Positions 24,748 to 27,249 of a stretch of 28,884 nucleotides of DNA are shown here, piece by piece. Source of the stretch: Burkholderiales bacterium (GTDB lineage Bacteria > Pseudomonadota > Gammaproteobacteria > Burkholderiales > JACQAP01); contig JAXIOX010000297.1 in NCBI GenBank assembly GCA_045403275.1, positions 1-28,884 of the forward strand, read 5' to 3'. The notes under the pieces are model-generated. The model worked only from the letters and a program-made list of their open reading frames with translations, searched no databases and was not told the origin of the DNA. The position numbers and the translations under genes were made by a program. Within the stretch, counting starts at the first letter, position 1. Every line of letters begins with the position of its first letter.

Positions 24748-25181
24748 CGCTTCCCGTAGATTTGCTGCGCGCGTCTGACGAAGGCTTCTACGAAAGTGTT
24801 GGCGATGTAATGAAACACCGGCCCGACCAGTTTCTCCAGCAGCCTGCTGGAGAATTCGTAGCGGAGTCGGAACTCGATCTTGCAGGCTTGCTCGCCCAGC
24901 GGTTTGAAATGCCAGCTGCCATCGAGATGGCGGAACGGCCCGTCCACCAGTTTCATTTCGATCAATTGTGGCGGTCGTGACCGGTTCTCCGTGGAAAAGC
25001 GTTGCCTGATGCCGCGATAATCGATTCTGATCGCAGCGTGGGTGACATCGCCTTCTCGCTTAATCACTTCGGAGCCGCCGCACCAGGGAAGGAATTCAGG
25101 GTACCTGGCGACGTCCTCCACCAGCGCATGCATCTGCGACGCGGAATACTCGACCAGCACGGACTTTTCCACCAGCACCAT
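24744..25181 (-). CDS. ratA: RatA/PasT (SRPBCC/Coq10-like)
   Basis: [43 protein letters not shown]; divergent from smpB. Start ATG 25181. Confidence 0.93.
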
Positions 25182-25214
25182 TGAGATTAACGCAGAGTTT
25201 GCGCAAGAGAGGGC

Positions 25215-25223
25215 TGGTAAAAT
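25215..25223 (+). promoter_or_regulatory. Putative extended -10 for smpB
   Basis: TG-G-TAAAAT, 50 nt upstream of the smpB ATG. Confidence 0.5.
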
Positions 25224-25273
25224 ACACGACCACCGCAGAAAAAGCACACGCATCTCGAAAGCCCGGCCTGGAA

Positions 25274-25720
25274 ATGAGCATCGTTCAGAACAAGAAGGCC
25301 TTTCATGATTATTTCATCGAAGAGCGGCTCGAGGCCGGATTGGCGCTCGAGGGCTGGGAGGTGAAGGCAATCCGCGCCGGCGGCGTACAGCTCAAAGAGG
25401 CCTACGTGGTGGTCAAAAACGCCGAGATGGTTCTGATCGGCTGCCACATCAGCCCGCTTTCAGCGGCTTCCACGCATGTTCAAGCCGACCCTACCCGCAC
25501 CCGCAAACTGCTTATGCACGCGGAAGAGATCCGCAAACTGATCGGCAAAGTGGAACGCGCCGGCTATACGCTGGTGCCGCTCGATCTGCATTACACCCGT
25601 GGCCGGGTCAAACTGGAAATCGGGCTCGCCAAGGGAAAAAAGCAGCATGACAAGCGCGACGCCGAAAAGGAGAAAGACTGGAAAAGAGAACAGCAACGTC
25701 TAATGAGACACAAAGCGTAG
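25274..25720 (+). CDS. smpB: SsrA-binding protein SmpB
   Basis: [54 protein letters not shown]. Start ATG 25274. Confidence 0.98.
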
Positions 25721-25737
25721 TTATCCCCGCTTGCGGC

Positions 25738-25786
25738 GCAGGCTAACTTGCCTCGGGCAAGTTAAGCGCGTAGCGCGGCCGGAACC
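25738..25786 (+). repeat. Conserved linker 1 with TAAC-hairpin-GTTA
   Basis: GCAGGCTAACTTGC-CTCGG-GCAAGTTAAG-CGCGTAGCG-CGGCCGGAACC; homologous to 25875-25925. Confidence 0.85.
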
Positions 25787-25857
25787 ACAAACGAGAGGCC
25801 GAAAAGGAAAAGGACTGGAAGCGTGAGCAGCAGAGGTTACTGCGTCAAAGGACCTGA
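25787..25857 (+). pseudogene. smpB: Silent smpB 3'-end copy 2 ([22 protein letters not shown])
   Basis: 71 nt from ACAA to TGA, colinear with 25650-25720; no in-frame start (TAG at 25771-25773 just upstream). Confidence 0.9.
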
Positions 25858-25874
25858 ACCGTCGAGTTTGCAGT

Positions 25875-25925
25875 GCAGGCTAACCTGCTCTTGAGCAGGT
25901 TAAGGGCGCCAGCCCGGCCGGAACT
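25875..25925 (+). repeat. Conserved linker 2 with TAAC-hairpin-GTTA
   Basis: GCAGGCTAACCTGC-TCTTGA-GCAGGTTAAG-GGCGCCAGCC-CGGCCGGAACT. Confidence 0.85.
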
Positions 25926-25996
25926 ACAAGCGCGACGCCGAAAAGGAGAAAGACTGGAAACGCGAACTGCAACGACTTATGAGGCAAAAGGCGTGA
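25926..25996 (+). pseudogene. smpB: Silent smpB 3'-end copy 3 ([22 protein letters not shown])
   Basis: 71 nt from ACAA to TGA; first 35 nt identical to 25650-25684; in-frame TAA at 25901-25903 upstream. Confidence 0.9.
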
Positions 25997-26002
25997 ATCG
26001 CC

Positions 26003-26051
26003 CCTCTAGCCTCTCGCCTCTCGCCTCCCGCCTCACGCCTTCCCCCTCACG
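26003..26051. repeat. Seven tandem heptamers (CCTCWCG-like) running into the trpS stop
   Basis: cctctag cctctcg cctctcg cctcccg cctcacg ccttccc cctcacg. Confidence 0.85.
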
Positions 26052-27249
26052 AATAATCCAAACCCATCGCCTCGCGCACGTCGCGAATGGTCTCATTGGC
26101 AAGCTTGCGGGCGCGATCGCAACCATCGGCGATGATATTGCGTACCAGCGTTGGATCGTCGAGATATGCCTTGGCACGCTCGCGTAACGGCTCCTGTTCC
26201 TTGAGCACTGCTTCGATCACCGGCTGCTTGCACTCCAGGCAACCGATACCGGCACTACGGCAGCCTTTCTGCACCCAGTCCCTGGTGGCTTGGTCGGAGT
26301 ACACCTTGTGGAACTCCCAAACCGGGCATTTGTCCGGATCGCCCGGATCCGACCGGCGCACGCGCGCCGGGTCGGTGGGCATGGTGCGGATCTTCCTGGC
26401 GACGCTTTCGGCAGGCTCGCGCAGCGTGATAGTGTTGTTGTAGGACTTTGACATTTTCTGCCCGTCCAGCCCCGGCATCTTCGAGGCTTCGGTGAGCAGT
26501 GCCTGCGGCTCGGACAGAATCATCTTACCGCCGCCCTCGAGAAATCCGAACAAGCGTTCACGATCGCCCATCGACAGATTGGCAGCCCCCTCCAGCAGCG
26601 CCTTGGCAGCCGCCAGCGCTTCTTCGTCTCCCTGCTCCTGGTAGCGGCTACGCAGTTCCCGATAGAGTTTGCCGCGCTTGACCCCGAGCTTCTTGATCGC
26701 GGCTTCGGCTTTCTGCTCGAATCCGGTCTCGCGGCCGTAGACGTGATTGAAGCGGCGCGCGATCTCGCGGGTGAATTCGATGTGCGGAACCTGGTCTTCG
26801 CCAACTGGCACGCGATTGGCACGGTAGATGAGGATATCTGCACTCTGCAGCAGCGGATAGCCAAGGAAACCGTATGTGGCAAGGTCCTTGTCGGCGAGTT
26901 TCTCCTGCTGGTCCCTATAAGAGGGGACGCGCTCGAGCCAGCCAAGCGGCGTGATCATCGACAGCAGCAGATGCAGCTCCGCGTGCTCCGGCACCCGCGA
27001 CTGGATGAACAGCGTCGCTTGCGACGGGTCGACCCCGGCGGCAAGCCAGTCGATCAGCATGTCCCAGATGTTTTGCTCGATAACTTCCGGTGTGGCGTAA
27101 TGGGTGGTGAGCGCGTGCCAGTCGGCGACGAAGAACAGGCACTGGAATTCGTGCTGCAATCTCACCCAGTTCTTCAGCACGCCGTGGTAATGACCGAGAT
27201 GCAGGCTCCCGGTCGGTCGCATTCCTGAAACCACGCGATCGACAAACAT
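26047..27249 (-). CDS. trpS: Tryptophan--tRNA ligase
   Basis: SGMRPTGSLHLGHY (HIGH), YPLLQSADIL, VPVGEDQVPHIE, KMSKS. Confidence 0.97.
   Translation of the reverse strand: MFVDRVVSGMRPTGSLHLGHYHGVLKNWVRLQHEFQCLFFVADWHALTTHYATPEVIEQNIWDMLIDWLAAGVDPSQATLFIQSRVPEHAELHLLLSMITPLGWLERVPSYRDQQEKLADKDLATYGFLGYPLLQSADILIYRANRVPVGEDQVPHIEFTREIARRFNHVYGRETGFEQKAEAAIKKLGVKRGKLYRELRSRYQEQGDEEALAAAKALLEGAANLSMGDRERLFGFLEGGGKMILSEPQALLTEASKMPGLDGQKMSKSYNNTITLREPAESVARKIRTMPTDPARVRRSDPGDPDKCPVWEFHKVYSDQATRDWVQKGCRSAGIGCLECKQPVIEAVLKEQEPLRERAKAYLDDPTLVRNIIADGCDRARKLANETIRDVREAMGLDYS

Follow-up and report, generated by a model that had tools for sequence, protein, structure and literature searches.

Element E: an apparently undescribed structured element at duplicated gene ends in Betaproteobacteria

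The attC sites of integrons are at least 57 nt long, contain L boxes, an unpaired spacer and extrahelical bases, and are recombined by IntI as a folded bottom strand. REP and REPIN sequences consist of a single palindrome of 20-40 nt with a conserved GTAG head and occur in hundreds of copies, and the PATEs of the IS200/IS605 group insert 3' of a fixed motif of 4-5 nt without duplicating their target. The ends of genes are the targets of other elements. Integrative elements surveyed by K. Williams reportedly target the ends of tRNA, tmRNA or protein genes and carry a replacement gene end, and rhs and cdiA toxin genes have displaced "orphan" C-terminal tips. Guide-directed and folded-strand systems include the EBS/IBS pairing of group II introns, the bridge RNA of IS110, and the folded single-stranded attP of CTX-phi, which is used with XerCD.

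In this study, we examine a locus of a Burkholderiales bacterium (G000) at which the 3' end, or tail, of smpB is present in three copies, and compare it with related loci in the same and in other genomes. The stretch of DNA that was analysed, called the window here, comprises the 28,884 nt of contig JAXIOX010000297.1 (assembly GCA_045403275.1). Each linker between the smpB tails contains one copy of an element, named E, with a conserved core of about 53-55 nt. No description of E was found in the literature, either by motif strings or by concept, and E is apparently an undescribed element that is widespread in Betaproteobacteria. Its newness would be lessened if the mechanism proved to be IntI- or HUH-dependent.

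The smpB coding sequence lies on the plus strand at 25276..25720 (from the list of open reading frames) and 40 of 41 related genomes have an orthologue of it. The first of the three tail copies is formed by the final 71 nt of this sequence (25650-25720); the copies are 71 nt long each and are repeated at spacings of 137 and 139 nt. Unit 1 (25650..25786, plus strand) starts at the A of G^ACAAG and is made up of arm a, tail 1, a spacer, arm a' and element E1; arm a' (25728-25733, CGCTTG) pairs with arm a at 25651-25656. E1 spans 25734..25786 and consists of a 5' CGGCG, AGGC at 25740-25743, a hairpin P2 at 25744-25764 (TAAC...GTTA), a second hairpin P3 at 25766-25776 with a GTA triloop, GGCCGGA at 25777-25783, and a 3' ACC. 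Unit 2 (25787..25925, plus strand) contains the displaced tail 2 at 25787-25857, with an in-frame stop at 25855-25857, a spacer with a' at 25858-25870, and element E2 at 25871..25925. The parts of E2 are a 5' CAGTG, P2 at 25881-25902, P3 at 25904-25915, GGCCGGA at 25916-25922 and a 3' ACT, and the inverted arms of its P2 are perfect over 10 nt (25881-25890 and 25893-25902). Tail copy 3 (25926..25996, plus strand) runs directly into the native smpB-trpS spacer, and the sequence 3' of it aligns with this spacer in relatives that have no element or one unit; to judge from the alignment, tail copy 3 is the resident, oldest smpB tail. Just past it, at 26003-26048, the spacer holds a tandem array of about five copies of the heptamer CCTCTCG, and CTCRCC-rich runs resembling this array are present in the smpB-trpS spacer of relatives.

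An earlier reading of the window from its letters alone (the sequence-only reading) had claimed that both linkers share a motif at an equal offset from the tail stop, and this was borne out. TTGC lies at +10 nt and GCAGGC at +17 nt from the stop in both linkers, and the anchored pattern AGGCTAAC-N-GTTAAG-N-GGCCGGA was matched twice in the window, at 25740-25783 in E1 and at 25877-25922 in E2, with no match in 100 dinucleotide-preserving shuffles of the window. Both elements are also matches of a covariance model built from 95 copies of E, at 60.7 bits for E1, which is itself a training member of the model, and at 60.8 bits for E2.

E begins with C-R-G-Y-G, ends with G-G-A-R-C-Y, and consists of a short stem that closes the element and two hairpins (P2 and P3), both variable and covarying, linked by invariant bases. 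In the closing stem, bases 2-4 of E pair with its last three bases to give a 3-bp inner stem that covaries (G-C 92 and A-T 34; G-C 104 and T-A 11; C-G 67, T-A 26 and T-G 23), while the first base of E, a C, stands opposite the first flanking base, an A, as a boundary mismatch in 124 of 133 copies. P2 and P3 are together enclosed by an invariant GGC...GCC clamp. The base of P2 is TAAC/GTTA and P3 lies between GTTAA and GGCCGGA; both stems covary freely, and P2, 27-42 nt in length, is mostly a continuous helix with one bulged A. The compensatory change that the sequence-only reading had noticed in the TAAC/GTTA stem is real, as the same positions covary across the 133 family members, in which the first variable pair is T-A in 57, C-G in 28, G-C in 23 and A-T in 5. 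Another part of that reading had to be revised: the palindrome of about 27 bp that it took for the conserved unit corresponds to P2 only, E having a second hairpin and a closing stem besides, and the boundaries of E are at this closing stem and not at GTT. The broader proposal of a hairpin-forming, structure-constrained signal that defines the repeat unit is supported.

The hairpin loops are mostly GNA triloops closed by C-G on the plus strand (56 in P2 and 52 in P3), and C-GNA-G is a known ultra-stable DNA mini-hairpin motif (PMC13037366). Tandem G.A pairs are frequent in the hairpins of E, and G.T wobbles occur on the same strand as the GNA loops. From these loops, pairs and wobbles we infer that the plus strand, as it is written in the window, is the folded strand and that the fold is DNA-like. 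The minus strand had been considered as the folded strand from C.A mismatches; this was dropped, the mismatches being the one conserved boundary mismatch. Folded as circular DNA, units 1 and 2 of the window gave the closing stem, the clamp and the two hairpins, as predicted. There is also a shorter variant of E without P3, CAGTG-A-AGGCTAA, a hairpin and TTA-C-GCCGGAACT (L229, L231, L235, L238 and L246), which several species have at the nuoD site and which is also found in miniature elements (MITEs) with terminal inverted repeats (TIRs).

Across the family, E forms the 3' end of a unit of the form A-a...a'-E. In 83 of 133 copies (62%), the 11 nt to the left of E, arm a', have a reverse complement of at least 9 of 11 positions, arm a, located 3-175 nt upstream, as compared to 4% in controls; perfect a/a' pairs numbered 31, and the right flank was also matched by a' in only 16 copies. 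Units start with AAAA or ACAA, that is, at G^A(A/C)AA, and a G is directly 5' of the unit in 61 of the 83. To the right of E the sequence starts with A(A/C)AA as well, and in 59 of the 83 it is a diverged direct repeat of the unit start, 10-76 nt long and 58-91% identical. The left flank of E is TTT or TTG in 104 of the 133 copies. Units are 70-180 nt in size and encode no protein; bare units have an arm hairpin of 4-5 bp (A-MAAC, a GNA loop, GTTK) and form arrays with a period of 69-75 nt. In the window, arm a' of unit 1 favors its own unit start, with a pairing energy of -8.7 kcal/mol as compared to -3.9 for the next copy, and the order is opposite for unit 2 (-6.0 for its own start, -10.1 for the next copy).

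The signal is not specific to smpB; E also flanks tRNA genes, a pterin dehydratase gene, nuoD, mraY, rpoD and pstB. In G000, repeated tails are found at smpB, mraY, pstB, the sigma-70 gene (rpoD) and the pterin-4a-carbinolamine dehydratase (PCD) gene, a repeated head is found at nuoD in three copies, and parts of tRNA-Ser and tRNA-Phe are repeated as well. Where insertion falls within the last or first codons of a gene, the unit brings a replacement gene end and the resident end is displaced outward as a silent copy. With both tails and heads replaced, E lies on opposite strands relative to the gene, which favors action at the level of DNA. The displaced nuoD heads of G000 (L002, 1292-1581; contig C14, minus strand) form open reading frames, of 41 and 48 codons, which start with MAEIRNYTMNF and continue into E, read as its reverse complement; coupling to nuoC could allow their translation into short peptides. 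At tRNA-Ser(GGA) (L163, contig C187) and tRNA-Phe(GAA) (L164, contig C177), the E unit is located in a partial upstream copy of the tRNA, with a partial 5' half, broken in the anticodon loop, to the left of E and the intact tRNA 40-70 nt to the right. The topology of these two loci is the reverse of that at protein genes and is not predicted by the simple model. tRNA-Phe is a target again in other species (L049, L137 and L144).

The divergence between the copies was analysed by a codon-phase test that needs no reading frame, applied to 30 repeat pairs of at least 24 nt each. Among 254 mismatches between unit-start copies, 66% fell in one codon phase as compared to 48% under the null (z about 10), with an observed sum of 167 against a null standard deviation of 4.2 and a maximum of 139 in 5000 permutations. 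In clear cases the peptide and the stop codon are kept, and the mismatches of the mraY tail number 2/1/12 by codon position. Because the differences are concentrated in one codon phase, they argue that the displaced copies are diverged former functional alleles and did not arise by simple decay of duplicates. Decay, as is expected of a silent copy, is seen in the displaced nuoD head of G051, G043, G024 and G046, which carry old insertions.

Filled and empty sites can be compared at several loci. At smpB, the element is missing from many species; a single unit is present in G012, G002 and G019, and at least three are present in G015. The single unit of G012, which is its first and functional one, corresponds to unit 2 of G000, from which it differs by two loop bases of E and one spacer base, and therefore G000 gained unit 1 on the gene side. 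The E1 variant is also present at smpB in G002, and a copy with a 44-nt core identical to that of E1 occurs at some locus of G051. In both halves, E1 and E2 agree with their counterparts from other species; as neither is a hybrid, the crossover must be placed at the boundary of the unit, outside E. At rpoD, empty sites consist of the stop codon followed by the spacer, and filled sites have an 11-nt replacement tail, a loop, the exact reverse complement of that tail, E and the old tail, with arm a' covarying with the functional tail (AAC or AAT codon). At nuoD, the nuoC stop abuts the nuoD start in the empty site; units of families A and B occur alone in some species, G000 and G011 have them stacked as A-then-B, and the rightmost, outermost nuoD copy lies in its native context, as in an element-free relative. 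In a complete genome, copies of a TIR MITE of about 250 nt differ by one 78-nt unit, inserted at G^ACAT. For smpB, rpoD, nuoD and the MITE, the comparison of filled and empty sites puts the junctions in the closing stem, at TTK^C and Y^A. At the three genes, the comparison shows that whole units were added on the gene-body side, building stacks such as the three smpB tails.

Two families of TIR MITEs of about 250 nt carry an E unit as a passenger (L192-L205, in the complete genomes G062 and G093). The ends of one family are GGAAACGCTGAA and those of the other are CAGGCCGTTGAAAAAC, adjoining CTAA/TTAG. Carriage of E in MITEs explains the identical E cores at eight or more dispersed loci, and some MITE copies have an E-less footprint in which the 5' CGGCGCA is fused to GCC. 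E was itself considered as a TIR MITE, and this identity was rejected: it has no TIRs and no short target-site duplication, and it is a passenger in the MITEs of G062 and G093. Separately, the nuoC-nuoD spacer of relatives (L224, L227, L232 and L240-L249) is a hotspot for other small insertions, unrelated to E, that have internal repeats of their own of the GACAGGAT, CACAGAG and TTTGCG types.

In the assembly of G000, 12 copies of E were found by regular expression and 26 by the covariance model, and E is present in most genomes of the genus. Of the 151 genomes and 96 genera of the order that were searched, 67 and 41, respectively, had a match to the model; named isolates and complete genomes are among them. 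The 151-genome tallies of E, IntI and Y1 include one unpublished genome, G063, and another, G049, enters some further tallies; no sequence-level claim uses either. A scan of one genome per species gave more than 118 contigs that match E, nearly all of them labelled Betaproteobacteria or Burkholderiales, with one stray Bifidobacterium label. Isolates with E are Azonexus caeni, Novimethylophilus kurashikiensis, Pigmentiphaga daeguensis and Paraburkholderia lacunae. Genomes have about 5-30 or more copies, and single-contig and 3-contig genomes have 27 to 30 or more; many copies come from metagenome-assembled genomes (MAGs), and isolates and complete genomes show the same architecture. Homologues of the linkers in other genomes, the lack of which would have refuted the sequence-only reading by its own criterion, do exist and are again tied to duplicated gene ends. 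No match to E was found among plasmids by blastn. Viral contigs gave three matches to the E pattern, a number within the chance expectation estimated for that collection: a chance match in a microvirus capsid gene, a host rpoD locus, and a true bare unit on a phage-like contig. The bare unit (L251, 4510-4590) lies between a helicase gene and a DUF6511 gene on this 8.6-kb IMG/VR contig, which is a possible vehicle for horizontal spread.

Whether E belongs to a described class was weighed on several lines of evidence. The base of P2, GGCTAAC...GTTAAGC, is close to the RYYYAAC and GTTRRRY boxes of attC sites, fitting at 6 of 7 and 7 of 7 positions, respectively (linker 2 has GTTAAGG), of which only AAC/GTT is truly diagnostic. 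Moreover, E and IntI are associated across the 151 genomes, where 41 have both, 26 have E only, 24 have IntI only and 60 have neither (odds ratio of about 3.9, not phylogeny-corrected). That E is an unconventional attC-like site, with units exchanged by IntI as miniature cassettes, is nonetheless unlikely. The attC likeness drawn by the sequence-only reading does not extend to the junctions, which are at the closing stem and not at the attC-type G^TT crossover of R', and E lacks L boxes and an unpaired central spacer, the one bulged A being its only analogue of extrahelical bases. No E arrays lie in the 75 kb around intI of G093, G119 and G062, and the attC sites of the G093 integron are canonical, about 65 nt long and unlike E. 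Of the 26 E-positive genomes without IntI, many are at least 98% complete; G027 has no IntI and 23 copies of E, and G062 has at least 30 copies and an intI pseudogene only. The G093 integron (L215, 14400-18000) is chromosomal, with an intact intI (485 bits) and attC sites of the form GCCCAAC...GTTAGGC spaced 445-1500 nt. In its small size, GC-richness, intergenic position, hairpins and regularly spaced tandem arrays, E also resembles a REP-like structural or regulatory element of the host, such as an mRNA stabilizer or protein-binding site, and the duplications would then be by-products of slippage or unequal crossing-over. We consider this quite improbable, because slippage leaves unexplained the fixed polarity of the units, their G^A(A/C)AA start, the complementarity of a' to coding sequence, the codon-phased divergence, and the unit families that are common to several species and stacked in order; a REP-like role is also at odds with the occurrence of E in either orientation relative to the gene. 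E differs from REP sequences in that it comprises three helices, lacks the GTAG head and is present in 5 to 30 or more copies, and the REP table of PMC2817692 contains no consensus that matches it. E neither flanks RAYT genes nor shows co-occurrence with them (E versus Y1 tally 43/24/49/35, odds ratio 1.3); a loose E-motif scan found nothing at 11 of 12 RAYT-like loci or at contig C226 of G000, and gave a single loose match at L150. The RAYT-like Y1 transposase gene on C226 (2000-4100) is flanked by short repeats of its own, of the GGAACTAAAG and GACCCCTTGCATTTT types, and not by E.

The two hairpins, the constant left flank, and a right cleavage site that pairs with the 5'-end bases of E, which recalls guide/cleavage-site pairing, would suit a palindrome-associated element of the IS200/IS605 type mobilized as single-stranded DNA by a Y1 HUH transposase. 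This identity is very unlikely, as Y1_Tnp was not found in the E-rich genomes G062, G027 and G015, and the flanking duplications of E (a target copy) and its right-flank constraint (AMAA) are absent from IS200/IS605 elements. Among the five E-rich genomes searched, an IS110 gene was found in only one, and an IS91 Y2 search gave none, with the control likewise silent. The compact multi-helix fold, the strong covariation and the resemblance of the unit arrays to rolling-circle satellites would suit an RNA-level element, such as a small ribozyme or a retro-mobile RNA that a reverse transcriptase copies back. An Rfam 15 scan of both strands of 25000-26400 gave no relevant match at E-values up to 10, RVT_1 is present in only one of five E-rich genomes, DNA hairpins are indicated by the GNA triloops and the tandem G.A pairs, and E occurs in both orientations relative to transcription, all of which make this explanation highly improbable. 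Least credible of all is that the smpB tail array is an artefact of metagenome assembly or, as the sequence-only reading had suggested, the scar of a large excised smpB-targeting island. G000 is indeed a MAG of 308 contigs and 78% completeness, but the same architecture is seen in isolates and in genomes of 1-3 contigs, arrays at the same locus are present in several species, and many different genes are targets. The units are, furthermore, complete and common to several species, and open reading frame clustering across 118 E loci revealed no recurrent neighboring protein and no recurrent recombinase, the largest cluster covering 11 loci. By these comparisons, E does not fit attC sites, REP/RAYT systems, IS200/IS605 ends, TIR MITEs or Rfam families.

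The explanation that we favor, with a probability of roughly 0.6, is that E units are small non-autonomous mobile cassettes that are active as folded single-stranded DNA. The mobile form would be a folded single strand, probably circular, with E enclosed by a stem that a' and a would form. A putative enzyme acting in trans would cleave the unit at Y^A and join it to a G^A target that continues with bases similar to the unit's arm a; arm a' may instead guide by pairing with the target, thereby aligning the two cut sites. Units with a gene end in the loop would serve as replacement cassettes, and the complementarity of a' to coding sequence could result from template switching at quasi-palindromes or from a hairpin-capped intermediate. 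Counted against this explanation are the lack of a recurrent recombinase neighbor, a replication-strand bias relative to dnaA that is not consistent (suggestive in G062, none in G093 or G119), the tRNA loci, the a' pairing of unit 2, and the many copies that come from MAGs. A stronger version, which we offer tentatively and would not yet expect to hold, is that the units are programmable single-stranded DNA integration cassettes, in which the a' arm (10-15 nt) selects the target, a host or other enzyme cuts at Y^A and G^A, and a replacement gene end is delivered. If true, this version would mean guide-directed insertion by an element with no protein gene of its own that rewrites the termini of essential genes.

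Should mobile E units be confirmed, they would represent a widespread, overlooked class of tiny mobile DNA in Betaproteobacteria. Essential genes (smpB, nuoD, mraY, rpoD and the tRNAs) would survive insertion because each copy brings a replacement end, and this would account for the stacks of silent gene tails and heads. The units would also provide a route for horizontal allele replacement at gene termini, by a structure-guided and possibly sequence-programmable chemistry of single-stranded DNA insertion. E is, in addition, an annotation hazard that gives rise to false short open reading frames, pseudo-tails and split tRNAs.

Compared with the known systems, E units resemble integron cassettes in being small, promoterless and stacked, with the newest next to the entry point, and E resembles attC in that it is defined by structure, has few invariant bases (AAC/GTT) and probably folds as single-stranded DNA. 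In contrast to attC, the junction of E is in another helix, its core of about 55 nt has a GGC/GCC clamp and a second hairpin, and it does not adjoin intI or attI; in contrast to integron cassettes, each unit has a copy of its target with it and integrates within genes, and many hosts of E lack IntI. Like IS200/IS605 ends, PATEs and REP/REPIN sequences, E is a non-autonomous hairpin element with a constant left-flank motif and internal guide-type pairing, but it is low in copy number, carries flanking target copies, does not co-occur with Y1 and does not flank RAYT genes. An element-borne nucleic-acid arm that matches the target is shared with group II introns and IS110, and the folded single strand may mimic a duplex site as does the attP of CTX-phi; unlike group II introns and IS110, however, E is linked to no intron, ribozyme, reverse transcriptase or IS110 gene, it pairs through a DNA arm that adjoins the core, and its targets differ among copies. 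As with gene-end integrative elements and the rhs/cdiA tips, insertion of E is healed by an element-borne copy and displaced ends pile up in tandem. Gene-end elements are kilobases long, encode an integrase or rely on homologous recombination, and have one fixed target each, whereas the E unit is 70-180 nt long, encodes no protein, and uses one core to serve many targets.
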